The notes: generated by a model not told the origin, from the letters alone. A stretch of DNA of 64,000 nucleotides from Actinomycetes bacterium (GCA_045807285.1 JBJMHR010000033.1:66792-130791), one strand, 5' to 3'. Shown: positions 14,729-29,657, counted from the first letter of the stretch. Numbers and translations are program-made.

Positions 14729-14833
14729 GACAACAGGACGAGCGGCCGTGGTGCTCACTGACCAAGAATCGCGGTCGGGCTGCGGCGGGGGTGGACCGAC
14801 CCGAAGTGCGCAACGGTCAGTGCGGGAACTGTC

Positions 14834-15163
14834 CTAGTGCGTTGCGGACCGGCGACGCCGACCGCTGGCGACGAAGACCGTGCCTGCGCCGATCGCGCCG
14901 ACGCCGACGACCACCATCAGGGCGATCTCACCACCGGTGAACGGCAGCCGCGAGGCATTCGTGCCCTCGACCTGGGTGCCGGGCGGTGTGCTCGGGTTGC
15001 GGGTGGCGTGGGTCGGCAGCACGCTGACCGACGGCGATGGGCACGTGGACGAGTAGGAGTTGCATGTGTCGGCGGGAGCCGCCAATGCAACGCCGGCCGT
15101 CCCGGCCAGGGATCCTGCGACGAGTCCGGCGAGGACCGCCGTCGTTGCGAGGTGCCGGTGCAT
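14834..15163 (-). CDS. Small secreted LPXTG-type (LPFTG) cell-wall anchored protein
   Basis: Signal peptide, then a Cys pair (CNSYSSTC), then LPFTGG, a hydrophobic helix and an RRRR tail. Confidence 0.6.
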   Translation of the reverse strand: MHRHLATTAVLAGLVAGSLAGTAGVALAAPADTCNSYSSTCPSPSVSVLPTHATRNPSTPPGTQVEGTNASRLPFTGGEIALMVVVGVGAIGAGTVFVASGRRRRSATH

Positions 15164-15295
15164 CGATTACCCCCTGCTACGTGGTTGACGGAAGTTTGCT
15201 CCACAGAGTCCGAACAAGCAAGCGACTACGCCTGATCTGACCCGAAATTTGGTGACGCAGCGTGCACTCGGAGTAGCGATAACTAGGCTGCCCGG

Positions 15296-15823
15296 GTGAA
15301 CGGTATGACCGCCATAGCCCGCGTGCTCGCCGCGGTCGTAGTGCTCACCGTAACAGCGGGTTGCTCAGGTTCCTCGGCGCCTCCCTCTGTGGGCCACGCG
15401 CCACCGACCGTGACGCCGTCCCCTTGCCCCGGGCTGCACCAGCCACCGCGGATCGTGACCTGGCCTCGGCCGTTGCCCGCTGACCTTCCCCGGCCGCCGG
15501 GAAGTAACCGCGCCACGATCGCGATCAGCAACGCCACCCTCACGGTGGTCCGCTTCACGGCGCCGGTCTCCTTGCCGGAGGGCGTGCTGTTCGTGCTCGG
15601 CTCGTTCCCGAAGGCGGGCTTCGCGCTCGGCCGGGGCGACGCCGAGCTGAACCAAGCGGACGCACCGTTCGCGCGGCAGGGCCTGTTCGGCCAAGTGCGC
15701 ATCAACGGCCTGGGCGTGTGCACAAGCCAATGGCTTGTCGCCGTCGGCACTCCGGCACGCGGGACGAGCCCGCTGCTGCCCGCCCCTAGCGCCTCGGCAT
15801 CGCCGCTTCCGTTCGGTCCGTGA
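15296..15823 (+). CDS. Lipoprotein of unknown function
   Basis: Lipobox LTVTAGC followed by a Pro-rich mature region. Confidence 0.55.
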   Translation: MNGMTAIARVLAAVVVLTVTAGCSGSSAPPSVGHAPPTVTPSPCPGLHQPPRIVTWPRPLPADLPRPPGSNRATIAISNATLTVVRFTAPVSLPEGVLFVLGSFPKAGFALGRGDAELNQADAPFARQGLFGQVRINGLGVCTSQWLVAVGTPARGTSPLLPAPSASASPLPFGP

Positions 15824-15824
15824 C

Positions 15825-16589
15825 GTGTGCGGGAGATACGCATCGGCGCGTAAGGCCGAAGACATCGCCGCAAGCTTCGGCATCCGACCCGAACGGGTGG
15901 ATGGGTCGCTGGACGCCGACTACAACGTCGCGCCGACCAAGCCGGTGTACGCCGTCGTCGAGCGCGTGCCGCGAGACGAGGACACGACGGAGCCGGTCCG
16001 GCAGCTCCGCGTCGGCAGGTGGGGTCTGGTCCCGTCGTGGGCAAAGGACCCGTCGATGGGTAGCCGGCTGATCAACGCTCGGGTGGAAACGGTCGAAGAC
16101 AAGCCCGCCTTCCGCCGAGCCTTCGCCGTACGGCGTTGCCTGCTGCCTGCCGACGGCTACTACGAATGGTGGGCGGCAACCGGCCTGGACGGAAAGCCGG
16201 TGAAGCAGCCCGTCTTCATCCGCCCTCGGAACGGCTCGGTGCTGGCGATGGCCGGGCTTTACGAGTTCTGGCGTGACCCGGCCGCCGCCGGCGAGGAGGA
16301 CGCCTGGATCTTCTCGGTGACGATCCTGACGACAACGGCCGAGGACGCCGTCGGCCATGTGCACGACCGGATGCCACTGATGGTGGACCCTGCTGGCTGG
16401 TCGGCGTGGCTTGACCCGCGGCGCGACGACCCAGCCGCTGTGCGCGATCTGCTCGTCCCGGCGCGGCCTGGGCTGCTCGAGGCCTATCCGGTCTCACGCG
16501 CGGTCAATGACGTCCGCAACGAGGGACCGCACCTGCTCGAACCGATCGCGGCCGAGGAGATCCCGGCGGACGCGCCGACGTTGTTCTGA
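15825..16589 (+). CDS. SOS response-associated peptidase (SRAP/YedK, DUF159)
   Basis: GTG then Cys2 (VCGRYA), RWGLVPSWAKD, INARVETV, FRRAF..RCLLPADGYYEW and HDRMPLMV. Starts 1 nt after the lipoprotein stop. Confidence 0.8.
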   Translation: MCGRYASARKAEDIAASFGIRPERVDGSLDADYNVAPTKPVYAVVERVPRDEDTTEPVRQLRVGRWGLVPSWAKDPSMGSRLINARVETVEDKPAFRRAFAVRRCLLPADGYYEWWAATGLDGKPVKQPVFIRPRNGSVLAMAGLYEFWRDPAAAGEEDAWIFSVTILTTTAEDAVGHVHDRMPLMVDPAGWSAWLDPRRDDPAAVRDLLVPARPGLLEAYPVSRAVNDVRNEGPHLLEPIAAEEIPADAPTLF

Positions 16590-16656
16590 CCGACCCGCCT
16601 TGTTGGGCGCCTTCTGAGCGGATAGGAAGGGACGCCCGTGCATCGAAGGAGGACCC

Positions 16657-17004
16657 GTGGACACCGCAACGGCGCGACAGCGGCTCGAGCAGTTGCTGAC
16701 CGACGTCGACCGATCGATCGCGACGTTGGAAGCCGAAAGCGGACGGCCGTCCTCCAGCCTGCGCCCCGATGTGGACACCGCCGATCCCGGCACCGCGCTC
16801 AGTGACGCCGACCGGGAGGCCGCCGCCCTCGAGACCTTGTCGAGCCACCGCGCGCACCTCACCGAGGCGCTGGCGCGCGTCGACGCCGGAAGCTACGGCA
16901 AATGCCTGGACTGCGGCGCCGGCTTGCCGGACGAGCGACTCGAGGCGCGGCCGGAAGCAGCGCGCTGCGTCAGCTGCCAGGCGCGGGCCGAAAACGGGCG
17001 CTAG
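16657..17004 (+). CDS. DksA/TraR family C4 zinc-finger protein
   Basis: C-terminal CLDCGAGLPDERLEARPEAARCVSC has C-x2-C-x17-C-x2-C spacing. Confidence 0.7.
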   Translation: MDTATARQRLEQLLTDVDRSIATLEAESGRPSSSLRPDVDTADPGTALSDADREAAALETLSSHRAHLTEALARVDAGSYGKCLDCGAGLPDERLEARPEAARCVSCQARAENGR

Positions 17005-17014
17005 GCAAGCCACC

Positions 17015-17635
17015 GTTGCCGTCGAGACCTCGGTCGGGACGGCCGGGGTCGTCCTCGAACGGCCGACCAGTGCCGCCCGCGGGTTGTTGGTCCTGGGACA
17101 CGGGGCCGGCGGCGGCATCGACGCTGCTGACCTGACCGTCGCGACCCGCGCGGCACTCGCTGCGCGCTGGTGCGTCGCTCGTGTGCTTCAGCCGTACCGG
17201 ATGGCGGGTCGGCGAGCGCCGGCACCGGCGGCCCGGCTCGACGCGGCCTGGCTCGACGTGGTCGCCGATCTCCGCAACCGGCGCGAGCTGCGTGGGCTGC
17301 CCACCGTCGTCGGCGGTCGTTCCAGCGGCGCCCGGGTCGCTTGTCGCACTGCGGGCGCGACCAGCGCAGGGGCGATCGTTGGCCTTGCCTTCCCGCTTCA
17401 TCCGCCCGGTCGTCCGGAGCGCTCCCGTGCCGAGGAGCTGCGGTCAGCGGCGGCTCCGGTGTACGTCGTACAAGGAGAGCGCGATGCCTTTGGTTCGGCG
17501 GCCGACCTCGTTGCGCTGCGGATCGGCAACGTTCGGGTGTGTGCCGTCGCGGGGGCGGATCACGCCTTGCGCGGACCGGCCGCCGCTGCTGCGGTAGCCG
17601 ATGTCGTGACCGAGGTGCTCGGGTCAGTCGGCTGA
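17015..17635 (+). CDS. Alpha/beta hydrolase (COG3571-like); start codon unresolved
   Basis: GLLVLGHGAGGG motif, GGRSSGARVA nucleophile elbow and C-terminal GADH. No ATG or GTG lies between the dksA-like stop and the motif, only TTG at 17084 and 17087. Confidence 0.45.
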   Translation, partial: VAVETSVGTAGVVLERPTSAARGLLVLGHGAGGGIDAADLTVATRAALAARWCVARVLQPYRMAGRRAPAPAARLDAAWLDVVADLRNRRELRGLPTVVGGRSSGARVACRTAGATSAGAIVGLAFPLHPPGRPERSRAEELRSAAAPVYVVQGERDAFGSAADLVALRIGNVRVCAVAGADHALRGPAAAAAVADVVTEVLGSVG

Positions 17636-18313
17636 TGCGACGTACACGCGACCGGCGACGCGGCCAGGGACAGCGGAGATGCCGTGCGACGTCTCGACGG
17701 TCAGCCGACCACGACCGCTGTCGACGACCGTCACCGCGCAGCCCGGGACCAGCCCTGCCTCTTCGAGCAGCAACATGCTTTCGGCGTCCGCTTCGATCTC
17801 CTCGCTGACACGGCGCACCTCCGCTTTGCCACCGGCGGGCACGTCCGCCAGTGGTTGCAGCGGATCGCTGGGCACGGGGTTGGCCGAGCCCGGGATCGGA
17901 TTGCCGTGTGGGCAGGTGGCTGGGTCGCCGAGCAACCGGACGAGGTGCGCTTCGAGGTTGGCGCTGATCGCGTGCTCGAGGCGGCCGGCCTCTTCGTGCA
18001 CCTGATGCCACGGGACGTGCAGTACGTCGACGAGGAGGCGCTCGGCCAGGCGGTGCCGGCGCATGATCGAGGTCGCGTAGCCGCGGCCTTCGTCGGTGAG
18101 GTGCACGACGCGGTGGTCGTCGAGGGTGACGTAGCCCTCGCGCGCCAGCCGGCCGACCGTTTCGGAGACGGCCGGAGCGGACACGCCGAGCCGTTCGACC
18201 AAGCGGGCGCGCATCGGGGGGATGCCGGATTCTTCGAGCTCGAGGATCGTCTCGAGGTACTCCTCGACCGCAGGGTGGTGGCCGGGCGCCGGCGTCGCCG
18301 TGCGCGGCTCCAT
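17624..18313 (-). CDS. ideR: Iron-dependent repressor IdeR (DtxR family)
   Basis: VEEYLETILELEESG...RRHRLAERLLVDVLHVPWHQVHEEAGRLEHAIS plus an SH3-like C-terminal domain. 229 aa from M8 of the track ORF. Confidence 0.85.
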   Translation of the reverse strand: MEPRTATPAPGHHPAVEEYLETILELEESGIPPMRARLVERLGVSAPAVSETVGRLAREGYVTLDDHRVVHLTDEGRGYATSIMRRHRLAERLLVDVLHVPWHQVHEEAGRLEHAISANLEAHLVRLLGDPATCPHGNPIPGSANPVPSDPLQPLADVPAGGKAEVRRVSEEIEADAESMLLLEEAGLVPGCAVTVVDSGRGRLTVETSHGISAVPGRVAGRVYVASAD

Positions 18314-18390
18314 TCCCGCTGGGCTCGGCGGCATGTGGCCATGCTAGGTGCCGAGTGAGGTGCCGGCAGGGGCCCGTCGCGGGCAGCCGC

Positions 18391-18418
18391 GGGAATCATC
18401 ATCGGGGTCTCATCTGTT
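18391..18418 (+). promoter_or_regulatory. Putative SigH/SigR-type ECF promoter (GGGAAT-N19-GTT) upstream of sigH
   Basis: GGGAAT at 18391-18396 and GTT at 18416-18418. Same architecture as the hsp20 promoter at 20593-20620. Confidence 0.4.
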
Positions 18419-18592
18419 CAAGCGCATATGGGCCCGCTCACGACCGGCGTACGACGCACGGCGTCGGCCCGGCGCTGCAGCCGGGCACCCGCGCGGCCAG
18501 GAGTGGGCTCGCGGCGGCGGTCGCGTCCGGGCGCGCGGGTATTGTCCGCGACGACGAGCAACGGACAGCCTGCTGATGAGACGTGGGCCGCA

Positions 18593-19237
18593 GTGAAGGC
18601 GGTGAGTGCGGTCGAGGAGACCAGCGAGCAGCGCGCCGCGCGGTTCGAACGCGACGCGATGCCGTTCCTCGACCAGCTGTACTCCGCAGCGTTGCGGATG
18701 ACGCGCAACCCGGCCGACGCCGAGGACCTCGTACAGGAGACGTTCGTCAAGGCGTTCGCGGCGTTCCATCAGTTCGAGGAAGGCACCAACCTCAAGGCGT
18801 GGCTCTACCGCATCCTGACGAACACCTTCATCAACAACTACCGCAAGGCCCAACGGCAGCCCCTGCAGAGCCCAACTGAGCAGATCGAGGACTGGCAGCT
18901 CGCCGCGGCCGAGGAGCACAGCAGCACCGGCTTGCGCAGCGCCGAGATGGAAGCACTCGACCATCTGCCCGACAGCGACATCAAAGAGGCGTTGCAGTCG
19001 CTGCCCGAAGAGTTCCGGCTCGCGGTCTACCTCGCTGATGTCGAGGGCTTCGCCTACAAAGAGATCGCCGACATCATGGGCACGCCGATCGGCACCGTGA
19101 TGTCGCGGCTGCACCGTGGCCGACGTGGCTTGCGCAAGGCTCTGCAGGGCTACGCCGAGGAGCGCGGGCTCGTGCGCGCCGCGACTGCGACGGATTCCGA
19201 AACTCGTGCCGGCACGGACGGGGAGGGCGGGAAATGA
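18593..19237 (+). CDS. sigH: ECF sigma factor SigH (SigR/SigE-like)
   Basis: Near-collinear with mycobacterial SigH: [40 protein letters not shown]...[20 protein letters not shown]...[15 protein letters not shown] start at 18593, with 18602 as an alternative. Confidence 0.85.
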
Positions 19238-19518
19238 GCTGCGGCGACCCGCACGAGGTGGACTGCCGTGAGGTGCTCGAGCGCGTGTACTTCTACCTCG
19301 ACGGCGAGATCGATGACGACGACTGCGCGCGGATCCGCGATCATCTCGACGAGTGCGCGCCATGCCTGCGCGAGTTCGGTATCGAGCAAGAGGTGAAGGC
19401 CCTCGTCGCGCGTTCGTGTGGATGCGAGACCGCTCCCGAGACGCTCCGCGAGCGCGTCATGCTGCGCATCCAGTCCGTGCGCATCGAGATCGACCACCGC
19501 GAGTTCCGCGCCGACTGA
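19234..19518 (+). CDS. rshA: Anti-sigma factor RshA/RsrA (ZAS family)
   Basis: [38 protein letters not shown] is a zinc-associated anti-sigma H-x3-C-x2-C. Overlaps the sigH stop (ATGA). Confidence 0.8.
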
Positions 19519-21268: not shown

Positions 21269-21913
21269 CTAGCCGGCGAGGCGCCGGTTGAGGGCATCGA
21301 GGACGCAGCGCGCGAGCGCGTCGACCTCGTCACTGCGGATCAGTGCACTACCGGTCATGAGCTGTTCGCCTTGCCGAGGGACGGCCAACGTCAGCACGCA
21401 CACCGCGACTGAGCGCCCACCGACCTGTACGACGGCCGCGTGGTCGAGCTCGGCCGGCGTACCGAGCAACTCGCGCAACGCCTCGAGTGTGGCCTGCGCA
21501 ACGAGTCGAGGTCGTGCGGACACGGACGACGACCCCGCCGCCGTGCCCTCGAAGGTCGTGCCGGCGAGTGTCACTGCGATCGTGGTCTCGGCCGCGTCGC
21601 CCGTCGTACGAACGGTGATGCTGGAGACAACGGGGCGCGGTGGTGAGATCTCGCCGTCAGTGCTCGAGTCCTCCGGCTCATCGAACTGCACGACGCTGAC
21701 GATCCGGTGATCGAGGTCGAGGCCATATCGCGCCATCGCCAGCGACTGGATGTCGCGCACGATCTGCTTGGCAGGCTTGCCGGTGCCGGCGAGCACGTGC
21801 ACCTCGGTCGGCACGGCATCGGGTGACGTGACGACGCTGGCCGCTTTGATACCCGGGATCTGGCGCAGCGCATCCTCGAGATCGGGGAGCAGCCGCAGAG
21901 CCGCCATCGTCAC
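21269..21913 (-). CDS. Hypothetical two-domain protein
   Basis: GTG start with GGAAGG 5 nt upstream (ATG at 21907 is the alternative). Begins VTMAALRLLPDLEDALRQIPGIKAASVV. No confident family. Confidence 0.4.
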   Translation of the reverse strand: MTMAALRLLPDLEDALRQIPGIKAASVVTSPDAVPTEVHVLAGTGKPAKQIVRDIQSLAMARYGLDLDHRIVSVVQFDEPEDSSTDGEISPPRPVVSSITVRTTGDAAETTIAVTLAGTTFEGTAAGSSSVSARPRLVAQATLEALRELLGTPAELDHAAVVQVGGRSVAVCVLTLAVPRQGEQLMTGSALIRSDEVDALARCVLDALNRRLAG

Positions 21914-22743
21914 CTGCGTCCTTCCCCACATTCGAAGCTTGCGTGCGTCGCTGGCTCGGTCACGGAGACCCAACCCGCGCGAAGTATCGAGCCCCGCGAG
22001 CCCGAGGACGGGCAGACGGTACGCGCATTGATGTCCCCCCGTGCAATGCCCGGCATCGCGGCATTGTTGTCGTCGGCGTCAAGTCGGCATTCTGGAGCCA
22101 CCCCGCGGCGGAGTGAGGATGCCCCATCCGGCTGGCCAAAGTCACACGCTCCGTAGTCGGCGCCGGTCGCGCGCCGACCGGCTCAATCGCGGCTTCGGAG
22201 CATTCTGCAGATGGACTGCGGCCGTTGGCAGTCATCTGAGCCGCGTTGCTCAATCGGACATCCAAACCCCAGAAGTTCTTTGTTTTGTCAGGGTAGCGGC
22301 GCATTGGCCGCGGCGCCGAATCGGGCATTCGCTTAGTTGCGTGTCGGAAGTTGGCGTTCTCACGCAAGGTCTGACGAAGGGCGTTAATCTTTGTAACAGT
22401 TGAGGCCTCAAGCGTTCCGAGGACTACGACGATGTGAGGGTGATCTTGCGACACGCATGTGGTCACGATTCGTTATGACACTTGACGCGCGTTGACCACA
22501 ACGGTTCACTCCCTTTGCAGGGTTGTGCGGAGCGCACACGAGTCGCTACAGCAGAGCTGGCGGCTTCTCCGTAGCCCAAGGGAACCAAGCCGGTCGCGGG
22601 GTCGGCGCACGTTGACAACTGCAGACGGGTAGATCGGGACCGGCAGGAACTTCTACGGCTTCTCACCAAACCTGAGCGGAGCGGATCCGCGCGAGCGTAG
22701 CGGTGCTCGTGACTTCAGATCCGTTGGGGGGCGATTAGCCAAC

Positions 22744-22809
22744 ATGAAGAAGCTTGCCGCGGTTATCGAACACATCTTTTCCGCCGGTGCCGGCTGGGGC
22801 TGGGGCTGA
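22744..22809 (+). CDS. Candidate 21-codon Trp-rich small ORF (MKKLAAVIEHIFSAGAGWGWG) in the HD-GYP leader
   Basis: ATG...TGA ORF 71 nt upstream of the HD-GYP start. Only a distant G-run could serve as an SD. Confidence 0.2.
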   Translation: MKKLAAVIEHIFSAGAGWGWG

Positions 22810-22880
22810 GCCCCGTCCCGCGTCGGTAGGGCAAATCCCCTGCCGGTCCCGGTCTCCCCGTCTCTTCCCTCAGGAGATCC

Positions 22881-24257
22881 GTGGTGCCCCGCAAGCAGGC
22901 AAGCGTCATCGCGTTCGTCGCGGTGCTGTTTGCGCTGGCGATAACCGGTCTGTTGTTGACCGCCACCCGCTCTGTCCCGTGGTCATCGGTTGCCGCGTTC
23001 ACTGCGCTGTTCTGGCTGTGCGCGTCATTCACGACACGCGTACGCGGTCACATAACGGTGTCGACCAGTTTCGTCGTTGGGCTCGCCGCTGTCTTGGTGG
23101 TTGGCCCCTTCGGCGCTGGCTTGGTGGGTCTGTCCGACGGACTGAAGCACCTGCCAGGAATGCGGCCCATACAACGGCTGTTCAACGCGGCACAAATGAG
23201 CTTGGCGGGGGTGCTGTCGGGGTTAGTTGTACGAGCTTCCTTCAGCGACAACAAGCGCCTACTGCATGCGGGTGCGAGCAGCGCAGCGTTGATCGCCGCC
23301 ACCATTCTTATTGTCTGTGTGTTCCATCTCGTTAACACGTCCCTTGTTGCTGCGGTCGTCTCGCTCGACGAAGGACTGCCCATTCACCGCGTCTGGCGCG
23401 GTAGTCAGTCCTGGGGAAGCGCGGCGTACCTCGCATACGGATTGCTCGGGCTGCTGATGGCCGTTCTCTGGGTGCGGGTCTCGCTGCTAGCGGGCGTCTT
23501 CGTCTTGATCCCGATCCTGGTTGCGCGCCAGACGTTCGCTCAGTACGCAGCCGAGCGTGAGGAGTATGACGCGACGGTGCGTGCCTTGATCCAATCGGTG
23601 GAGACCAAGGACTACTACACGCGTGGGCACTCCGAACGGGTGTCTCGAGCGACAGTTCTGATCGCGCGCGAATGGGGACTGCGCGAAGACCGGGTGAACG
23701 TCATCCGGTACGCCGGTCTCCTGCATGACGTGGGGAAGCTCGGCGTACCGACCAAGGTGTTGCAAAAGCAGGGCAAGCTGAACGACGCGGAGTTCGACGC
23801 GATCAAGCTGCACCCGATGCGCGGCTACGAGATGCTGCGCGAGATCAGGTTTCTTGAAGAAGCGCTGACCGGCGTCGTACACCATCACGAGCGGATGGAT
23901 GGCAAGGGTTATCCGATGGGTCTGGTGGCCGAGGAGATCCCAGAGTTCGCGCGCATCATCATGGTCGCCGACGCTTTCGACTCCATGACGTCGACGCGTT
24001 CATACCGTGCCGCGAAGAACGTCGAGGAAGCGATCACCGAACTGCGCAAGTGGCAGGGCCAACAGTTCGACCCGTACGCCGTCGAGGCGTTGGTACGCGC
24101 GCTCGAGAAGAACGAGTGGGAGCCACACCCCGAGCCCTTCCACGGCGAACTTGTCGCACGCGATGGCTCATTGCTGCCACGTCCAAGCGGCGCGCCGAAC
24201 TCCGAACGGCGGCAGAGAGATACTGCGCCGGGCTCCGAGCCGCGGCAGGTGTCATGA
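22881..24257 (+). CDS. 7TM-receptor HD-GYP phosphohydrolase (likely c-di-GMP phosphodiesterase)
   Basis: N-terminal multi-TM domain. Intact HD-GYP: GHSERVS, LLHDVGK, HHHERMDGKGYP, DAFDSMTSTRSYR. GGAGA RBS. Lower GC and rare codons (ata, tta, att) compared with its neighbours. Confidence 0.8.
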   Translation: MVPRKQASVIAFVAVLFALAITGLLLTATRSVPWSSVAAFTALFWLCASFTTRVRGHITVSTSFVVGLAAVLVVGPFGAGLVGLSDGLKHLPGMRPIQRLFNAAQMSLAGVLSGLVVRASFSDNKRLLHAGASSAALIAATILIVCVFHLVNTSLVAAVVSLDEGLPIHRVWRGSQSWGSAAYLAYGLLGLLMAVLWVRVSLLAGVFVLIPILVARQTFAQYAAEREEYDATVRALIQSVETKDYYTRGHSERVSRATVLIAREWGLREDRVNVIRYAGLLHDVGKLGVPTKVLQKQGKLNDAEFDAIKLHPMRGYEMLREIRFLEEALTGVVHHHERMDGKGYPMGLVAEEIPEFARIIMVADAFDSMTSTRSYRAAKNVEEAITELRKWQGQQFDPYAVEALVRALEKNEWEPHPEPFHGELVARDGSLLPRPSGAPNSERRQRDTAPGSEPRQVS

Positions 24258-25558
24258 CGCAGGTAGATCCACGCGCGTTGCTGCCTATGCGGCGACGTGG
24301 CGACCTCGACCATCCAGGTGCTGGACCACTTACGGCTGTCGCGGCCTTGTTGTCGGTGGCCGCGGTTGCGGAGACGGCAAGCCGCGGGCTCGTGCAGCCG
24401 AGGATCGGCCTCGCGTTCGCGGCGCTCATCGTCGTCGGCGAGATCGTTCGGGTGCGGCTTCCCGGCGATCGCGAACTTGCTCCGGTCGGCGTCGCGGCCG
24501 CCCTTGCCTACGCATTGGTTCTCGACGTCGGCCGGGAGAAAGCCCAGCACAGCGCGTGGCAAGTCGTCGCCGTCACAGCATTCGCAGTGACACTCGGCAG
24601 CCTGCCGCATCTCGCGGCTGGCCGTTCGGCACGTCTTGACGACCTCGCTCGACGCGTGCTGCTCGCGGGCGTCGCCGCGGCGGTATTCCGACCGTTCGCT
24701 AGCCATCTGCGCGGCAACTCGACCACGTTGATCCTCGCCATGCTGGGCGCGGCACTTGTCGCATCCGCAGTCGATGTCGCACTCGCCAGCGTCGTACGCG
24801 CGGCCGGTCAGTTCCGTCGACTGGTCACCGCTGCGCATGACGAGGTGCGCGCAGCAGCGGGCATCGGCCTCGCTATCGGCGCTACTGGAGTGCTCATTGC
24901 GCTGGCCGCGCGCCCGCTCGGTTTGTGGGCGCTACCCGTATTCACTGTGCCGCTGTTGGTGACGCAGATCTCAGTACGCCGGTACGCAGCAATTCGCGCG
25001 ACGTCCCTGCAGACGATTCGCGCCCTGTCGCGGGTGACGGAGGTCGGCGGTTACGTCGAACCCGGCCACTCGCGACGCGTGAGCGCGGTCGCCGTCGCAC
25101 TTGGTCGCGAGTTCGCGCTCAACGAGTCCGACCTCTTGGATCTCGAGTACGCCGCTCTGATGCACGACATCGGCCAACTGTCGTTCAGCGATCCGATTCC
25201 GGGTGGCGCCACACTCGTCGTTGCACCGCCGGAGCGGCGGCGCATCGCCGAGCTCGGTGCCGAAATCATCCGCACGACGGGAACGCTCGAGCGTGTTGCG
25301 GAGATCGTCGAACGACAGGCTGATGCCTATCGCCTCCCCGGAGCGGGAGCAGACGCCGGGCTGCCGTTGTCGAGCCGCATCATCAAGGTTGCGAACGCCT
25401 ACGACGACCTCGTCGGCGACCGCATCGATCGGGCCACGACCGAGGCCGCACTCGAACGGCTCCGGCTCGGCTCGATCTCGGAGTACGACCCACGCGTCGT
25501 CGAGGCACTCGACCGCGTGCTACGCCGCAGCGGTCTCGCGCTGACGCTGATCAGCTAA
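24254..25558 (+). CDS. Degenerate 7TM-HD paralog (HD retained, HHE/GYP motifs lost)
   Basis: Coupled to the upstream gene (ATGA). Has GHSRRVS and ALMHDIGQ, but QADAYRLPGAGADAGLP replaces HHExxDGxGYP. Confidence 0.7.
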   Translation: MTQVDPRALLPMRRRGDLDHPGAGPLTAVAALLSVAAVAETASRGLVQPRIGLAFAALIVVGEIVRVRLPGDRELAPVGVAAALAYALVLDVGREKAQHSAWQVVAVTAFAVTLGSLPHLAAGRSARLDDLARRVLLAGVAAAVFRPFASHLRGNSTTLILAMLGAALVASAVDVALASVVRAAGQFRRLVTAAHDEVRAAAGIGLAIGATGVLIALAARPLGLWALPVFTVPLLVTQISVRRYAAIRATSLQTIRALSRVTEVGGYVEPGHSRRVSAVAVALGREFALNESDLLDLEYAALMHDIGQLSFSDPIPGGATLVVAPPERRRIAELGAEIIRTTGTLERVAEIVERQADAYRLPGAGADAGLPLSSRIIKVANAYDDLVGDRIDRATTEAALERLRLGSISEYDPRVVEALDRVLRRSGLALTLIS

Positions 25559-26116
25559 CTCCGTCTCGTCGCTCGCGCGGCGACGATGCATCCCGGAGAC
25601 GATCAACAACGCGACACCCGACACGATGAGGATGTCGCCGACACTCACGATCTCGGGCCGGCCAGGCAGCGGCACGGGAACAACGTCACTGAACGCGCGT
25701 AACCGCGTATGGCTGTCGGCGATTTCGTGCGTGCTGTCCTCGGCCCGCAGGAGCGAGCCCGCAGGAACGCCCGCGCGGGACTCGGCGTACAACGACACGG
25801 GCATCACGCCATTCGCCGCGATGACAGCGGCGTTGAGCAGAAGCCCGGCTGCCAAGAGCGGTACACCTTCGACGGCGCGGTTGCGCGTGAGCACCGTCAA
25901 CACGCATACCGCAGCCGCGAGCGGACCTCCAACCGCTGCGGCGTAGCCAGCGGCGCCGCCGATCGTCGACAGCATGGCGCCGGCGACGACAGCTGCGATC
26001 GCGACCAATACAACCCGCCATCCACGCATGGGCACGTCCGCGAGTCGCTCCAGCCGCCCGCCGGTTGCCCAGCCGACGAGGATCGCGCCGACGGTGACAG
26101 AGAGCAGAAGAGCCAC
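25520..26116 (-). CDS. Hypothetical membrane protein
   Basis: Multiple hydrophobic helices. Converges on the HD paralog with a 39-nt overlap. Start uncertain. Confidence 0.4.
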   Translation of the reverse strand: MALLLSVTVGAILVGWATGGRLERLADVPMRGWRVVLVAIAAVVAGAMLSTIGGAAGYAAAVGGPLAAAVCVLTVLTRNRAVEGVPLLAAGLLLNAAVIAANGVMPVSLYAESRAGVPAGSLLRAEDSTHEIADSHTRLRAFSDVVPVPLPGRPEIVSVGDILIVSGVALLIVSGMHRRRASDETELADQRQRETAAA

Positions 26117-26133: not shown

Positions 26134-27474
26134 GTGTTCGAGTCGCTGCTGGTAGCGAATCGCGGTGAGATCGCGCGTCGCGTCATTCGCAGCGCACAAC
26201 GCGTCGGGCTGCGCGCCATTGCGGTGTACTCCGAGGCTGATGCCGACTTGCCGTACGTCGCCGAGGCGGACGAGGCGATCCTGCTCGGGCCGGCGCCGCC
26301 CGCGGAGAGTTATCTCGACATCGCGAAGCTGCTCGAAGCAGCCGGGCAGGCGCGGGCCGAGGCGATCCACCCCGGGTACGGCTTCCTCGCCGAAAGTGCA
26401 GAGTTCGCTGCGGCGGTGATCGACGCGGGCTTGACATGGGTCGGCCCGGGAGCCGATGCAATCGCCGCGATGGGCGACAAAGTGAAGGCACGCAACGTCA
26501 TGGCCGATGCCGGCGTACCGGTGGCGAGCGGGACTCGCGACCCGGTCCCGGACGCTGACGCCGCGGTCGCTGCCGCCGCGCGGATCGGTTATCCCGTGAT
26601 GGTGAAAGCTGCTGCCGGTGGTGGTGGCATCGGCATGGGCGTGGCTGCAGATGATGGCGCACTGCGGGCAGCGTTCGATACTGCGCGCAGTCGCGCCGAA
26701 CGGTTCTTCAGCAGCCCCGCGATCTTCCTGGAGCGCTACATACCCGGCGCCCGCCACGTCGAGGTCCAGATCCTTGGGCTGGCCGACGGTCGCGTCGTCG
26801 CTCTCGGCGAGCGCGATTGCTCAGTGCAGCGGCGGCATCAGAAGGTCGCGGAAGAGACACCGTCCCCCGGTATCACCGACGAACTGCGCCAGACAATGCT
26901 CGCTGCGGCAGTGCGCGCCGGCGAGGCTGTTGGTTACCGCAACGCCGGCACCGTCGAGTGTCTTGTTGATCCAGCAGCGCAGACGTTCGTGTTTCTCGAG
27001 ATGAACACCCGCCTTCAGGTCGAGCATCCCGTGACGGAACTCGTCACTGGCATCGACGTCGTCGAGCAGCAGCTTCGCATCGCTGCCAACGAGGACGTGA
27101 CCTTCGACGTCGACGCGGTGCAGCCGCGCGGGCATGCACTCGAGCTTCGGGTGTACGCCGAAGATCCGAAGCGCTTCCTGCCGTCACCAGGCCACATCGA
27201 CGAGTGGCAGGAGCCGAACGGTGACGGCATCCGCGTTGACAGCGGATACTCCGCAGGCAACACCGTCACGCCGCACTACGACCCGTTGTTGGCCAAGCTG
27301 TGTGTGTACGGCGCGGATCGCGAGCACGTTCTGGAACGAGCGCGCGTCGCCGTCGCCGAGTTCAACATCACCGGCGTGAAGACGAATCTCCCGTTCTTCG
27401 CCGAGCTGCTGCAGGACGCCAGCTTTGTGTCCGGCGCATACGACACCGGTCTCGTCGACAGGATGCGCTCATGA
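26134..27474 (+). CDS. accC: Biotin carboxylase subunit (stand-alone BC)
   Basis: MFESLLVANRGEIARRVIRS, the ATP-grasp motifs and EMNTRLQVEHPVTE. 446 aa with no fused BCCP. Confidence 0.85.
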   Translation: MFESLLVANRGEIARRVIRSAQRVGLRAIAVYSEADADLPYVAEADEAILLGPAPPAESYLDIAKLLEAAGQARAEAIHPGYGFLAESAEFAAAVIDAGLTWVGPGADAIAAMGDKVKARNVMADAGVPVASGTRDPVPDADAAVAAAARIGYPVMVKAAAGGGGIGMGVAADDGALRAAFDTARSRAERFFSSPAIFLERYIPGARHVEVQILGLADGRVVALGERDCSVQRRHQKVAEETPSPGITDELRQTMLAAAVRAGEAVGYRNAGTVECLVDPAAQTFVFLEMNTRLQVEHPVTELVTGIDVVEQQLRIAANEDVTFDVDAVQPRGHALELRVYAEDPKRFLPSPGHIDEWQEPNGDGIRVDSGYSAGNTVTPHYDPLLAKLCVYGADREHVLERARVAVAEFNITGVKTNLPFFAELLQDASFVSGAYDTGLVDRMRS

Positions 27475-28247
27475 GCGATTTGCGTGTCACCGGAGACGGC
27501 GCCGTACTTTCCCTGCTCATCGACCGCGAGGACAAGCGCAACGCCCTGTCGGGTGAGGTCCTGCGAGGGATGCTCGATGCTGTCCGGACTGTTGACGCCG
27601 GCGGCGATGTGCGTGTGGTGGTCGTCTCGTCTGCGGGGCAGAAGGTCTTCTGCTCGGGTGCAGACCTGGGCGTGATGACGAACGACGCGACCGGGCTCGA
27701 ACAGCACGAGGGGCGCGGTCTGCTGCGCGACGTCGTCCTCGCATTTCGGGCCTGTCCGGTGCCTGTGCTTGCGCGCGTTCAGGGCCTCTGCCTCGCCGGT
27801 GGCGTCGGGCTGGCGCTCGGTTGCGACATCGTGCTCGCGTCGACGGCGGCGCAGTTCGGGCTGCCGGAGGTCGGTCTTGGGTTGTGGCCCTTCATGGTGA
27901 GCGCGTTGCTCGCCCGCCACGTCTCACCGAAGCACGCCATGCACCTGATGGTGTCCGCGGAACGCATCGACGCGGAGGCGGCATACGGCATGGGCTTGGT
28001 CAGCCGCGTGCTGCCCGCGGAAACCTTCGACGCGGACGTGGACGCCTACGTGCAGCGACTGGCCGCCGCGCCACCGGTCGCCGTACGGCTCGGCAAGGCG
28101 GCCTGGGTGACCGCTCAGGAGGCACCGCTGGGGCCGGCGCTCGAGGCCATGCAGGCCCAGCTGTCGCTGCTGACGACGACGCGCGACGCGGCCGAGGGCG
28201 TCGCTGCGTTCTTCGAGAAGCGAGCACCGAACTACACCGGGCGCTGA
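27471..28247 (+). CDS. Enoyl-CoA hydratase/isomerase (crotonase) family protein
   Basis: VVVVSSAGQKVFCSGADLG with catalytic Glu regions. Coupled to accC (ATGA). Confidence 0.8.
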   Translation: MSDLRVTGDGAVLSLLIDREDKRNALSGEVLRGMLDAVRTVDAGGDVRVVVVSSAGQKVFCSGADLGVMTNDATGLEQHEGRGLLRDVVLAFRACPVPVLARVQGLCLAGGVGLALGCDIVLASTAAQFGLPEVGLGLWPFMVSALLARHVSPKHAMHLMVSAERIDAEAAYGMGLVSRVLPAETFDADVDAYVQRLAAAPPVAVRLGKAAWVTAQEAPLGPALEAMQAQLSLLTTTRDAAEGVAAFFEKRAPNYTGR

Positions 28248-28272
28248 CCCGGCCCAACGAGAGGAGATCCGG

Positions 28273-28488
28273 GTGGCGACAGAGGTGCGCGCTGAGATGG
28301 TCGCGAACGTCTGGAAGGTCGTGGTCGGGGAGGGCGCGTCGGTCAAGGACGGCGACACTCTGGTGATCTTGGAATCCATGAAGATGGAGATTCCCGTGGT
28401 CGCCGAGGGGGCGGGGAAGGTCACCTCGCTCCGGGTGAATGAGGGCGACGTCGTCCAGGAGGGCGACGTCATCGCGGTCATCGAGTAG
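28273..28488 (+). CDS. Small biotinyl-domain protein (BCCP-like, cf. mycobacterial TB7.3)
   Basis: 71 aa. LVILESMKMEIPVVA is a biotinyl-lysine motif. GAGGAGA RBS. Confidence 0.7.
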   Translation: MATEVRAEMVANVWKVVVGEGASVKDGDTLVILESMKMEIPVVAEGAGKVTSLRVNEGDVVQEGDVIAVIE

Positions 28489-28532
28489 CCGGGAGGGGTC
28501 GTCGACCCTGATTTCGGGCATCTCGGCCCCGC

Positions 28533-29657
28533 TTGAGGGTCAAGGCTGGCCCGAAGTACGCCGAGACAGACTTCGTGAGCGCGCCGACGATCGAGCCATT
28601 CCTCCGCGCCCTCGTCGAGTGTGGGGGCTCCGACTTGCACTGCAAGGTCGGTTCGCCGCCGCGTGTCCGGATCGACGGCCGCCTGCGGAAGCTCCAGACG
28701 CGCGACCTCACGGCCGCGGACACCGAGGAGATGGTCACCGAGGTGCTGCGCTCCGACCTCGTGGAGGAGTTCCGGCGCAAGAACGAGGCGGACTTCGCGT
28801 ACTCGCTTTCGGGAGTCGGCCGGTTCCGGGTCAACGCCTTCCGGTCGCGTGGCAGCGCCGGTCTCGTCTTCCGCCGCGTCGCCGTCGGTGCGATCCCGCT
28901 CGAGGAGCTCGGCCTTCCGCCGGTGCTGGCCTCGCTCGCGCTCGAACCTCGCGGTCTCGTCCTCGTGACCGGCCCGACCGGCTCCGGTAAGACGACGACC
29001 CTCGCCGGCATGATCGACCACGTCAACAACAACCGCGAAGTGCACGTCGTCACGATCGAGGACCCCATCGAGGTCCTGCACTTCGACAAGCTCGCGATGA
29101 TCAACCAGCGTGAGGTCCGCGTCGACACCGACGACTTCTCCGCCGCCCTTCGGGCAGCAATGCGGCAGGACCCCGACGTGATCCTCGTCGGCGAGATGCG
29201 TGACGTCGAAACGGTGCGCGCTGCGTTGGCGGCCGCGGAGACCGGTCACTTCGTCATGTCGACGCTGCACACCACGGATGCGCAGGAAACGATCAACCGC
29301 GTGATCGACTTCTTCCCGGTGCACGAGCAGAAGCAGGTTCGGCTGTCACTCGCTGCGGCGCTGCGCGGCATCATCTGCCAGCGGCTCGTTCCGCGCGCCG
29401 ATGGCGAAGGCCGCTGCGTCGCCATGGAGGTCTGCATCAACACGGGCCGTATCGCCGATGCGATCGCGGACCCCGACAAGACGTCGACGATGACCTCGCT
29501 CATCGCCGAAGGCGCGTACTACGGAATGCAGAGCTTCGACCAGCATCTGGTCTCGCTCATCCGCGACGGAGTCATCACGCTCGAAGCAGCGATGGCTGCG
29601 TCCACGAGCCCGCACGACCTCACGGTCGAGCTGCGCCGGCTCGGCCTCGTCGCCTGA
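28533..29657 (+). CDS. pilT: PilT/PilU-family type IV pilus retraction ATPase
   Basis: Walker A GPTGSGKTTT, IEDPIEVLH, VILVGEMRDVETVRAALAAAETGHFVMSTLHTTDAQETINRVIDFF. No other pilus genes in the window. Confidence 0.8.
   Translation: MRVKAGPKYAETDFVSAPTIEPFLRALVECGGSDLHCKVGSPPRVRIDGRLRKLQTRDLTAADTEEMVTEVLRSDLVEEFRRKNEADFAYSLSGVGRFRVNAFRSRGSAGLVFRRVAVGAIPLEELGLPPVLASLALEPRGLVLVTGPTGSGKTTTLAGMIDHVNNNREVHVVTIEDPIEVLHFDKLAMINQREVRVDTDDFSAALRAAMRQDPDVILVGEMRDVETVRAALAAAETGHFVMSTLHTTDAQETINRVIDFFPVHEQKQVRLSLAAALRGIICQRLVPRADGEGRCVAMEVCINTGRIADAIADPDKTSTMTSLIAEGAYYGMQSFDQHLVSLIRDGVITLEAAMAASTSPHDLTVELRRLGLVA

Follow-up and report, generated by a model that had tools for sequence, protein, structure and literature searches.

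Results

The hdgA-hdgB locus and its neighbourhood

In silico analysis of the window, a 64,000-nucleotide stretch of DNA from a source labelled only as "Actinomycetes bacterium" (GCA_045807285.1, JBJMHR010000033.1:66792-130791), established that two genes specifying membrane-anchored proteins of the HD-GYP family lie in tandem on one strand (Table 1), and that this pair is the ortholog of the hdgA-hdgB operon of Streptomyces, whose gene names are used here. The two genes are joined as an earlier note on this DNA had read them, with the ATG of hdgB at 24254 lying inside the stop of hdgA (...GTG TCA TGA) and producing a 4-nt ATGA overlap. The 434-aa protein initiated at this ATG has the same sequence as P0001, the protein called by NCBI, and in the NCBI annotation HdgA is given as 457 aa, its start being placed one GTG later than that of the 458-aa ORF. 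The nearest named relatives are Frankiales/Frankiaceae MAGs, and the attribution to mycolic-acid actinobacteria in the earlier note finds no footing in this placement, as to our knowledge Frankiales/Frankiaceae make no mycolic acids. A scan for sigma-70 promoters gave no match, terminator-like matches were present only at chance level, and no ORF with a GGDEF motif was found in the window, which leaves the pair with no local cyclase partner.

Table 1. Features of the hdgA-hdgB region, with positions counted from the first nucleotide of the window
Feature	Position	Strand	Description
ECF sigma factor	18428-19237	+	Pfam Sigma70_r2/r4; SigR/SigH-like
zf-HC2 anti-sigma factor	19234-19518	+	Pfam zf-HC2; RsrA/RshA-like
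Structured 5′ leader of operon	22616..22880	+	P1 helix, internal hairpin, box and micro-ORF
Micro-ORF MKKLAAVIEHIFSAGAGWGWG	22744..22809	+	21 codons, inside leader, ends 71 nt before hdgA start
Gene 1 (hdgA ortholog)	22881..24257	+	458 aa, predicted membrane-anchored HD-GYP phosphodiesterase
Catalytic HD-GYP domain of gene 1	23556..24110	+	aa 226-410, binuclear subclass
Gene 2 (hdgB ortholog)	24254..25558	+	434 aa, membrane-anchored pseudo-HD-GYP paralog
Degenerate HD domain of gene 2	25004..25528	+	aa 251-425
DUF5317 membrane protein	25520..26116	-	Pfam DUF5317 E 2e-23; link to pair uncertain

The sigma/anti-sigma pair upstream of the operon immediately precedes hdgA-hdgB in Streptomyces sp. 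WZ-12, where the RsrA-like gene adjoins it; unlike in Streptomyces, a galE-like gene, hsp20 and an unknown gene lie between the anti-sigma gene and hdgA of the window. The same pair also precedes the fused hdgAB genes described below, and in L089, a close relative, it is located three annotated genes from hdgA. SCO5218 is the HD-GYP protein of S. coelicolor, in which SCO5216 is sigR and SCO5217 is rsrA. Judged by gene order, the sigR-rsrA-like pair and hdgAB have an ancestral neighbourhood in common. On the other side of the operon, the DUF5317 gene is convergent with hdgB and overlaps its 3′ end by 39 nt; a DUF5317 gene follows hdgB in 8 of the 80 loci and in L089, all of them from the clade to which the window belongs. 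A 168-aa ORF at 21960-22466 on the minus strand was rejected as a gene, as none of the loci conserves it at the protein level and its GC3 is only 0.65; JGI calls a 165-aa gene at the corresponding position in L089.

HdgA carries a complete HD-GYP site

HdgA comprises a transmembrane (TM) sensor region (approximately aa 1-207), a stalk helix (~209-246), the HD-GYP domain (~226-410) and a disordered tail (~420-458). It matches the Pfam families HD_5 (E 5.7e-39) and HD (E 1.5e-20), as well as the sequences of solved HD-GYP enzymes in the PDB (E 1e-36 to 1e-42). Catalytic residues were assigned by residue-by-residue alignment to PmGH (4MCW), in which the di-metal ligands are H189, H221, D222, H250, H276, H277 and D305 (H..HD..H..HH..D). 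All seven have their counterparts in HdgA (H250, H282, D283, H311, H335, H336 and D364), and six of these are present in 77/77 aligned orthologs and the first His in 75/77, the other two being gapped. The remainder of the catalytic set is likewise in place (K286, E337, D340, G343-Y344-P345 and D367), the HHExxDGxGYP motif reading HHERMDGKGYP at aa 335-345, and the c-di-GMP contacts are kept as K296, equivalent to the lid residue Lys235 of PmGH, and as R373-S-Y375-R376 (RxY[K/R]). The description of this protein in the earlier note, as an HD-GYP with every catalytic motif behind a multi-TM sensor, is thereby borne out. Glu185 of PmGH, which binds the third metal, is represented by Tyr246 (Tyr in 75/77 orthologs, two gapped), and owing to the absence of this Glu HdgA was assigned to the binuclear subclass, as are PA4781 and V-cGAP3. 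From its sequence, HdgA is a protein of the inner membrane, with a cytoplasmic HD-GYP domain in which the binuclear metal site is complete and no c-di-GMP contact is missing. Sequence similarity does not single out a substrate, as the best PDB match is the cGAMP-specific V-cGAP3 (E 2.9e-42, versus 1.3e-36 for PmGH).

HdgB is a degenerate paralog

HdgB matches HD_5 with an E value of 1.1e-14, and careful alignment to PmGH retains just three of its seven di-metal ligands, H272, H304 and D305, the others being replaced by I331 (third His), Q355 and A356 (the HH pair) and N381 (last metal Asp); D384 is also retained. The Lys of HDxGK is Q308 and the lid Lys is G318, and the GYP loop has been lost or exchanged for other residues, with QADAYRLPGAGADAGLP present. 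This agrees with the earlier note, according to which the first His and the HD were kept and HHExxDGxGYP was replaced; retention of all metal ligands, named there as grounds for refutation, is not observed. Nucleotide contacts are lost as well, Tyr316 of PmGH corresponding to Asp392, and the position of Arg314 being occupied by Ser in 77/80 orthologs, albeit by Arg390 in the window. These changes are fixed in the 80 orthologs, namely K to Q, K to G, H to I, D to N and deletion of GYP, and likewise HH to Q plus C, S or A, and they are accompanied by fixed motifs specific to the family (HDIGQLS, DPIPGGAT, ERQADxYR and ANAYDD).

An HD-GYP fold is nevertheless indicated by the AF2 model of HdgB (pLDDT 82.7), for which the top Foldseek matches were DvhD, PmGH, V-cGAP3 and Bd1817, with E values of 1e-4 to DvhD and 6e-4 to PmGH. 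When HdgA and HdgB were compared with hhalign, the paralogs aligned through the stalk helix (probability 99.7%, E 3e-26). HdgB is an ancient paralog of HdgA, with homology that begins in the last TM helices and extends over the stalk and the HD domain, and its residues cannot build the di-metal site.

Conservation of the pair

The comparative set consisted of 80 genome loci, from which 80 HdgB and 77 HdgA orthologs were aligned. HdgA was directly upstream of HdgB, in the same order, in every one of the 80 loci, and the 4-nt (NTGA) overlap recurred in 56 of them; as both proteins also have thousands of homologs, the pair is not a chance arrangement. HdgB is as conserved as the enzyme, with a mean distance of 0.52 versus 0.57 for HdgA and a mean column identity of 60% versus 62%, which points to purifying selection on the dead copy. 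The pairwise distances of the two proteins correlate (r = 0.974; partial r 0.93 when controlling for the neighbouring biotin carboxylase), a result that is suggestive only, as shared membrane-signalling constraints or a shared tree could also produce it. In one lineage HdgA and HdgB are fused into a single protein, represented by two diverged clusters of 950 and 979 aa that are intact from six samples.

A profile search with HdgB matched proteins of Streptomyces, Kitasatospora and Embleya over their full length, the Streptomyces cluster representatives at E ~1e-119. In Streptomyces sp. WZ-12 the HdgB-like gene follows, with a 4-nt overlap and on the same strand, a gene for a 468-aa HD-GYP protein. 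BLASTP comparison with this pair gave 56% identity over 250 aa for HdgA and 44% identity over 441 aa for HdgB, the best match of each window protein within the pair being its own counterpart.

The membrane sensor domains

The earlier note had ascribed a 7TM architecture to both proteins; the structure models give approximately six TM helices and a short intramembrane hairpin, and not clearly seven helices. The membrane domain of HdgA gave a weak match to MASE9 (PF20972), whose reference is the membrane sensor domain of T. maritima TM1467, below the Pfam cut-off (16.6 bits versus 24.3, E 0.0076), and most HdgA orthologs carry a precomputed PF20972 match. For HdgB, no member of alignment A1 matched MASE9, and hhalign aligns its last TM helices with those of HdgA. 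As modelled, the six-TM domain adopts a fold like that of the S-component of ECF transporters. The window proteins gave no Pfam or NCBIfam match to S-component sequence families, and no genes for an ECF T/A (EcfT/EcfA) module were found flanking the pair; the likeness would accordingly be a resemblance of fold only.

A structured leader with a micro-ORF precedes hdgA

The region upstream of hdgA can form a long-range helix, P1, from a 25-nt inverted repeat that is 92% complementary, its arms at 22623-22647 and 22839-22863 enclosing a covarying hairpin, an invariant AGCGGAGCGGA box at 22675-22685 and the micro-ORF, with the Shine-Dalgarno sequence of hdgA (GGAG) approximately 10 nt past the 3′ arm. 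The leader has an MFE of -149 kcal/mol (z -3.4). Among the ten sequences of alignment A3, P1 comprises 23 pairs, nine of which have compensatory changes, and the hairpin eight pairs, six of them compensatory; 96.7% of the alignment cells are paired, as compared to 37-48% with slid partners, and 0 of 500 shuffles reached the observed value. A search of metagenomes with a loose leader pattern returned mostly chance sites, both helix arms being present in only 5 of 120; these five copies occur in the same context, with hdgA present in all that reach far enough. A riboswitch was rejected, as no Rfam family matched in the leader at E<=1, the sole Rfam match being a chance-level COG2908 located inside hdgA.

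The micro-ORF is intact in 14 copies, most of which maintain the ATG, a length of 20-25 codons, the frame and a C-terminal W-x-W, the consensus being MKKIxxAVExFLxxxAxWxW; L089 and L080 carry variants (...NQWG and ...LGWS). The frame of a fifteenth copy (L071) is open only if a 1-nt shift is allowed, and the copy of L053 is cut by the end of the locus. Across the three codon positions the nucleotide entropy is 0.71/0.53/1.00, third positions being the most variable. The micro-ORF is not called as a gene in L089, and in the fused lineage it contains WWWHP repeats.

Discussion

The earlier note regarded the pair as a plausible novel signalling unit, a view that does not survive comparison with the literature, as adjacent genes for a 6TM-HD-GYP protein and a 6TM protein with a degenerate HD-GYP domain, forming one operon, were named hdgA-hdgB in S. 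venezuelae in 2018 (PMC6205966), and were discussed again in bioRxiv 10.1101/2021.11.05.467447 (2021, published 2022) and in 2026. What can be added is that the pair is conserved across the class Actinomycetes and is far older than Streptomyces. HdgA (vnz24090) and HdgB (vnz24095) of S. venezuelae have the same architecture as the window proteins, a multi-TM region with HD-GYP being followed by a multi-TM region with an HD lacking GYP; the sequences compared here are those of WZ-12, and the link to the named genes is made through the statement that the Streptomyces pan-genome contains just these two membrane HD-GYP orthogroups (PMC6205966). Gene order and the sigR-rsrA-like neighbourhood are common to the window and Streptomyces, whereas the Streptomyces locus has a 195-nt gap in which neither the AGCGGAGCGGA box nor the structured leader and micro-ORF of the window was found. 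The specificity motif also differs, being RSYR in the window, while S. venezuelae HdgA is reported with Ser as the last residue of this motif (Galperin and Chou).

We propose that hdgA-hdgB specifies a heteromeric unit composed of a c-di-GMP-hydrolysing HdgA and a non-catalytic, regulatory or sensory HdgB, a reading which we consider to be, on balance, probable. HdgA would hydrolyse c-di-GMP, probably mainly to pGpG owing to the absence of the third-metal Glu, and hydrolysis of c-di-GMP by S. venezuelae HdgA has been cited as a personal communication (Galperin and Chou, bioRxiv 10.1101/2021.11.05.467447). The two proteins would be produced together from one mRNA by means of translational coupling and would assemble through the stalk helix and the HD-domain interface, in the manner in which HD-GYP proteins dimerise, stalk-mediated dimerisation having been described for HD-GYP domains (PMC13090378). 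HdgB would thereby bring a second membrane sensor domain and tune the activity of HdgA. Such an arrangement of a dead and a live HD-GYP resembles V-cGAP3 of Vibrio cholerae (PDB 5Z7C), the best sequence match of both window proteins, in which a degenerate N-terminal domain (LDEHWNGQGRP, AQVFD) sits beside an active one (HHEKLDGTGYP, ADIFD). V-cGAP3 is, however, one soluble and cGAMP-specific chain with the dead domain first, whereas HdgA and HdgB are separate membrane proteins, the live enzyme being encoded first, and are fused in one lineage only. Dead HD-GYPs have been proposed to work by protein-protein interactions in HnoD of Shewanella oneidensis and in degenerate members of the RpfG family, though these HnoD-type proteins are soluble REC-HD-GYP response regulators that are not part of an operon paralog pair and that have HD changed to SE and HHE to QLE. 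HdgA for its part has the full catalytic residue set in common with PA4781 (4R8Z) and PmGH (4MCW), and the absence of the third-metal Glu with PA4781, both of these enzymes having soluble REC or GAF sensors in place of a membrane domain. Counting against the heteromer are the silent single deletions of hdgA and of hdgB in S. venezuelae, neither of which has a developmental phenotype (PMC6205966; 2026 paper), and the apparent presence of a lone gene in a few Streptomyces strains (76 versus 79 of 93; PMC6205966).

The earlier note had left open whether the second protein is an inactive receptor or a regulator; regulator is the best reading of the present data and receptor is doubtful. HdgB as a stand-alone receptor of a cyclic dinucleotide (c-di-GMP or cGAMP), comparable to DvhD or LapD and linked to HdgA by co-expression only, would be in keeping with the frequent use of degenerate HD-GYP, EAL and GGDEF domains as receptors (Galperin and Chou, bioRxiv 10.1101/2021.11.05.467447) and with the self-interaction of HdgB in a two-hybrid assay, the sole published interaction datum, an HdgA-HdgB interaction not being reported (2026 paper). 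DvhD of Desulfovibrio vulgaris (PDB 9RBZ/9RC0), like HdgB a membrane-anchored, non-catalytic HD-GYP protein and one that dimerises via stalk helices, moreover ranks first among the structural matches for both models. Yet the pattern of loss is opposite in the two proteins, as DvhD, which binds c-di-GMP, lost HD and HH and kept GK, the lid Lys, GYP and RxYR, whereas HdgB kept HD but has Gly at the position of the lid Lys, lacks the GYP Tyr through deletion, and has Ser for the RxYK Arg in 77/80 orthologs and Asp or Glu for the RxYK Tyr. DvhD further differs from HdgB in carrying dCache and PAS domains and in lacking a partner enzyme. Loss of the residues that contact c-di-GMP makes a receptor role less likely, the fusions and the fixed overlap would be left unexplained, and we judge this reading to be unlikely. 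The fixed motifs DPIPGGAT and ERQADxYR could instead form a ligand site of HdgB's own. In this vein, HdgB may not be dead, a single-metal His/His-Asp site (with Glu269/Asn381) and the new motifs serving another ligand or reaction, for instance that of a metal or redox sensor or of another phosphoester hydrolase acting in the HdgA pathway and not as a subunit. H272, H304, D305, D384 and Y359 are indeed invariant, E269, N381, R354, Q355 and R360 are nearly so across orders, and the ancestral neighbourhood of the operon is common with the thiol-stress pair SigR-RsrA. We know of no HD hydrolase that uses such a ligand set, the Asp that would complete a classical H..HD..D site is Asn in 78/80 orthologs, and none of the database matches suggests a ligand, so a single-metal HdgB appears improbable.

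A different question is whether HdgA is a phosphodiesterase for 3′3′-cGAMP, or a mixed one, which concerns the substrate only and would be compatible with any role of HdgB. The ranking of V-cGAP3 above PmGH points in this direction, and certain HD-GYPs do hydrolyse cGAMP (Galperin and Chou, bioRxiv 10.1101/2021.11.05.467447). The RSYR motif of HdgA is nonetheless the canonical RxY[K/R] and not the cGAMP-linked RxxQ or RxxN, the activity reported for S. venezuelae HdgA is on c-di-GMP, and a scan of the window that covered GGDEF/EAL-type motifs only, and that is consequently a weak argument, detected no cGAMP synthase; we regard a cGAMP substrate as very unlikely. That hdgB is a decaying, functionless duplicate might be supposed from the loss of its catalytic residues and the lack of a deletion phenotype of S. 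venezuelae on standard medium. This was rejected, as the frame is intact in 80/80 loci across several orders and the replacements are fixed; HdgB furthermore evolves no faster than HdgA and comprises 436 representative clusters at E<=1e-30, and in S. venezuelae it is expressed and, like HdgA, present in the membrane fraction (PMC6205966). Conservation of the predicted protein can be said to effectively refute decay, to which we attach a negligible probability.

The leader with its micro-ORF and the S-component-like fold are more novel observations than the pair itself, albeit peripheral to it. A fuller version of the heteromeric unit, in which an obligate membrane phosphodiesterase would have a fixed pseudoenzyme subunit and two S-component-like domains as intramembrane sensors of small molecules and, in the window's clade, a previously undescribed leader RNA with a translated W-x-W leader peptide would additionally gate its synthesis, can be put forward only tentatively.

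As the ortholog of a described operon, the locus itself adds little. The class-wide occurrence of the pair, the constraint on a dead subunit, the lost nucleotide contacts and the fusion together render the model of a heteromeric enzyme plus pseudoenzyme directly testable, and the possible S-component-like fold, the SigR/RsrA thiol-stress neighbourhood and, in one clade, the covarying leader and micro-ORF may provide hints to the signal and phenotype of HdgAB.

Gene pair and active-site residues

The two genes meet at the junction ...GGT GTC ATG ACG..., where the last two bases of the gene 2 ATG fall within the TGA stop of gene 1; the 434-aa product is identical to the NCBI protein call on the source contig, and its start methionine is common to its closest homologs. 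Both products match Pfam HD_5 (E 5.7e-39 for gene 1, 1.1e-14 for gene 2) as well as solved HD-GYP proteins, and gene 1 has a sub-threshold match to MASE9. AF2 models of the two (pLDDT 83.6 and 82.7, respectively) agree in layout: the first two TM helices are followed by a short hairpin and four to five further helices, after which a long stalk helix leads into the HD domain. The two families are paralogs. In a profile-profile comparison (probability 99.7%, E 3e-26, 289 columns) the aligned part begins at the last TM helices, takes in the stalk helix and runs to the end of the HD domain. An Rfam match to COG2908 RNA at 24133-24168 (+), at the 3' end of gene 1, was judged to be due to chance (18.7 bits against a gathering threshold of 58.7, E 0.29).

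Both proteins were aligned, together with 77 gene 1 orthologs and 80 gene 2 orthologs, to the HD-GYP domain of PmGH (4MCW), for which residue roles are known from the literature. Gene 1 has 7 of 7 di-metal site ligands, HHERMDGKGYP, the lid Lys and RSYR, and lacks only the third-metal Glu, which is Tyr246 here; it thus belongs with PA4781 and other enzymes of the binuclear type. Gene 2 retains the first His and the HD, and in the ADxFD box it keeps the second Asp; the Lys of HDxGK is replaced by Gln, the lid Lys by Gly, the third His by Ile, His-His by Gln-Ala and the last metal Asp by Asn, and GYP is missing. The alignment shows an intact binuclear HD-GYP site in gene 1, and a gene 2 that cannot form one. 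It thus bears out the earlier note, which had described a complete motif set in gene 1 and a gene 2 keeping the His and HD without GYP; a full set of metal ligands in gene 2 was not found.

Coordinates of features in the window and in related loci (L083-L088, loci with the fused gene; L081, a fetched locus; L089, a close relative of the window)
Feature	Position	Strand	Remarks
aroA, SRAP, SigR/SigH-like ECF sigma and RsrA/RshA-like zf-HC2 anti-sigma genes	window 13454-19518; L081 1-4403; L089 1-3095		near hdgA-hdgB
Conserved protein without Pfam family	21269-21973	-	46-57% identity in 7/80 genome loci and 4 metagenome loci
Leader RNA	22616-22880		upstream of hdgA; covarying, conserved, unannotated
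Inverted repeat	22623-22647 / 22839-22863		leader helix; 25 nt, spanning 191 nt
Invariant box AGCGGAGCGGA			in leader; 11-mer
Hairpin			in leader; covarying
Micro-ORF MKKLAAVIEHIFSAGAGWGWG	22744-22809		21 codons; ends 71 nt before hdgA
Gene 1 (hdgA)	22881-24257	same as gene 2	458 aa, counted from first of two adjacent GTGs
Gene 2 (hdgB)	ORF 24050-25558; ATG at 24254	same as gene 1	434 aa
DUF5317 membrane protein	25520-26116	-	convergent with hdgB; 39-nt overlap with its 3' end
Biotin carboxylase, enoyl-CoA hydratase, PilT-type ATPase	window 26134-29657; L089 9855-15275		downstream of pair
Small biotinyl carrier protein, bioB, bioD-like gene	L089 9855-15275		additional in L089
Fused hdgA-hdgB gene	L083 5001-7940; L086 1853-4705		979 aa and 950 aa; intact ORFs
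53-aa WWWHP ORF	L083 4691-4852; L086 1463-1624; also L084, L085, L087, L088		between rsrA-like gene and fused gene

Orthology with hdgA-hdgB and genomic context

[quoted passage not shown] 2018, PMC6205966, where both genes were named). Hydrolysis of c-di-GMP by HdgA is cited as a personal communication by Galperin and Chou (bioRxiv 10.1101/2021.11.05.467447), and self-interaction of HdgB in a two-hybrid assay was described in a 2026 paper. Our link to the S. venezuelae pair is indirect, being made through other Streptomyces sequences. Representative matches to the HdgB profile include clusters named from Embleya, Kitasatospora, Streptomyces sp. WZ-12 and the S. malaysiensis group. The complete genome of WZ-12 encodes a 439-aa HdgB-like protein with HDIGQ, ERQADPYR and VNAYED and without HHE or GYP, whose gene overlaps by 4 nt the end of the gene for a 468-aa complete HD-GYP protein. 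Identity of the window proteins to the WZ-12 pair is 56% (HdgA) and 44% (HdgB), and each has its own counterpart as best match. Upstream of the WZ-12 HD-GYP gene are genes for an ECF sigma factor and for an anti-sigma factor; the latter protein begins MSCGEPHEKDCSEVLDHLYEYLD and is taken here to be RsrA. The S. coelicolor HD-GYP protein is SCO5218 (domain at aa 226-393); SCO5216 and SCO5217 are sigR and rsrA, in agreement with this neighbourhood.

Relatives of gene 2 number in the thousands (54-60% identity) across Frankiales, Streptosporangiales, Kitasatosporales, Nanopelagicales and other Actinomycetes, with 436 clusters at E<=1e-30 in a profile search of 1.84 billion representatives. Among 80 fetched genome loci, each with a gene 2 relative, a gene 1 ortholog lay directly upstream on the same strand in every case (44-69% identity in the best aligned segment), the NTGA overlap, an in-frame start codon on the upstream stop, was present in 56, and most had a galE-like gene upstream and biotin carboxylase downstream. 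The aroA/SRAP/sigma/anti-sigma neighbourhood of the pair is deeply conserved. In the window, AroA, SRAP, a dksA-type zinc-finger protein, an IdeR-like repressor, ECF sigma and zf-HC2 anti-sigma are encoded at 13.4-19.5 kb, followed by galE, hsp20, a gene of unknown function and hdgA-hdgB; the sigma and anti-sigma genes are beside hdgA in Streptomyces, and in the window these three genes intervene. hdgA-hdgB may be linked to thiol stress or heat stress. Within the window's clade (8 of the 80 loci, and L089) the PilT gene is retained near the pair, and only there does the DUF5317 gene, of which no mention was found in the literature searched, lie downstream of hdgB.

On these sequence comparisons the window pair is assigned as the ortholog of the hdgA-hdgB operon. 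Given this orthology and the neighbourhood shared with the Streptomyces pair, it does not represent a novel signalling unit as the earlier note had proposed, nor was any tie to mycolic-acid producers found, the nearest named relatives being Frankiales/Frankiaceae MAGs. The observation of that note therefore stood and its reading was right in part, while its claims of novelty and taxonomy were not supported.

HdgB as a maintained pseudoenzyme

The replacement residues of HdgB are fixed in 80 orthologs from several orders, and its rate of evolution does not exceed that of HdgA (mean distance 0.52 versus 0.57). Together with the loss of the di-metal site, this makes HdgB a pseudoenzyme that is maintained, not a copy in decay. 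Pairwise distances of HdgA and HdgB correlate at r = 0.974, each at approximately 0.80 with the neighbouring biotin carboxylase (partial correlation 0.93), which is suggestive only as the sequence pairs share a tree. Fused proteins with an HdgA-like half (HHERxDGxGYP) and an HdgB-like half (HDxGQ, ANAYDD) form two diverged clusters of 950 and 979 aa, with intact ORFs from six samples, and their genes also lie in sigma/anti-sigma context. HD-GYP domains dimerise via the stalk helix (PMC13090378), and this helix is the best-conserved segment common to the two paralogs. The invariant adjacency, the mostly kept overlap, the distance correlation, the fusions and stalk dimerisation together suggest that the two proteins act together, and V-cGAP3, a single chain that combines a dead HD-GYP domain with a live one, offers a precedent.

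As a degenerate HD-GYP protein, HdgB could serve as a ligand-binding receptor; however, the proven non-catalytic receptor DvhD has lost the HD and kept the lid Lys, GYP and RxYR, the reverse of HdgB, making this the weaker reading. HdgB may have a site for a new ligand or for a single metal, as DPIPGGAT and ERQADxYR are nearly invariant. The favoured interpretation is a heteromer in which HdgB would be a regulatory or sensory subunit: HdgA and HdgB would assemble and HdgB would regulate HdgA, although what signal is sensed, and in which direction the regulation would run, are conjectural.

Leader upstream of hdgA

The gap between the divergent gene of unknown function and hdgA is approximately 900 nt and of lower G+C. 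Conservation in the window's clade covers its final 265 nt, which form the leader; the approximately 640 nt before the leader are of lower GC. A single long ORF is present in the gap, at 21960-22466 (-; 168 aa), and is probably not a gene, having no protein-level conservation and a GC3 of 0.65; JGI calls a 165-aa gene at this position in L089. In an alignment of 10 genome sequences, 9 of the 23 pairs of the long helix and 6 of the 8 hairpin pairs had compensatory changes; 96.7% of cells were paired as compared to 37-48% with slid partners, and 0/500 shuffles reached the observed values. The 11-mer box was confined to leader loci in 1.14 Mb of fetched DNA, save one other site, in locus L057, taken as chance, and an Rfam search of the leader gave no family match. 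A metagenome scan added 5 copies with both arms, to give 15 in genomes and metagenomes, all lying between the divergent gene and hdgA as far as the contigs extend. The divergent gene co-occurs with the leader and is always divergent from it and hdgA.

The ATG, length and frame of the micro-ORF are kept in 14 intact copies, most with W-x-W at the end, and third codon positions vary most (entropy 0.71/0.53/1.00). The element is read as a putative translated leader controlling hdgAB expression; that stalling would depend on Trp is only a guess from the Trp motifs. Loci with the fused gene have, ahead of it, a different ORF, of 53 aa and with two WWWHP(K/H) motifs (for example MNNTPRTPAPAAARTWWWHPKPGVAADQMSGLDSAAAGTWWWHPKPVAADTIA), which may encode a Trp-rich leader peptide or the precursor of a small peptide.

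Membrane domain and significance

The membrane domain of HdgA, in a model built from 35 sequences, appears to resemble S components in fold only. The intramembrane binding of small molecules by S components agrees with the published guess of ligand binding within the membrane by MASE9, a domain defined by Galperin and Chou with HdgA as its sole studied member (bioRxiv 10.1101/2021.11.05.467447), the only relevant paper mentioning MASE9 found in our literature search. The pair is already known as the hdgA-hdgB operon, to which the window adds another member, and the interest of the locus accordingly lies in the role of HdgB and in the side observations on the leader and the fold.
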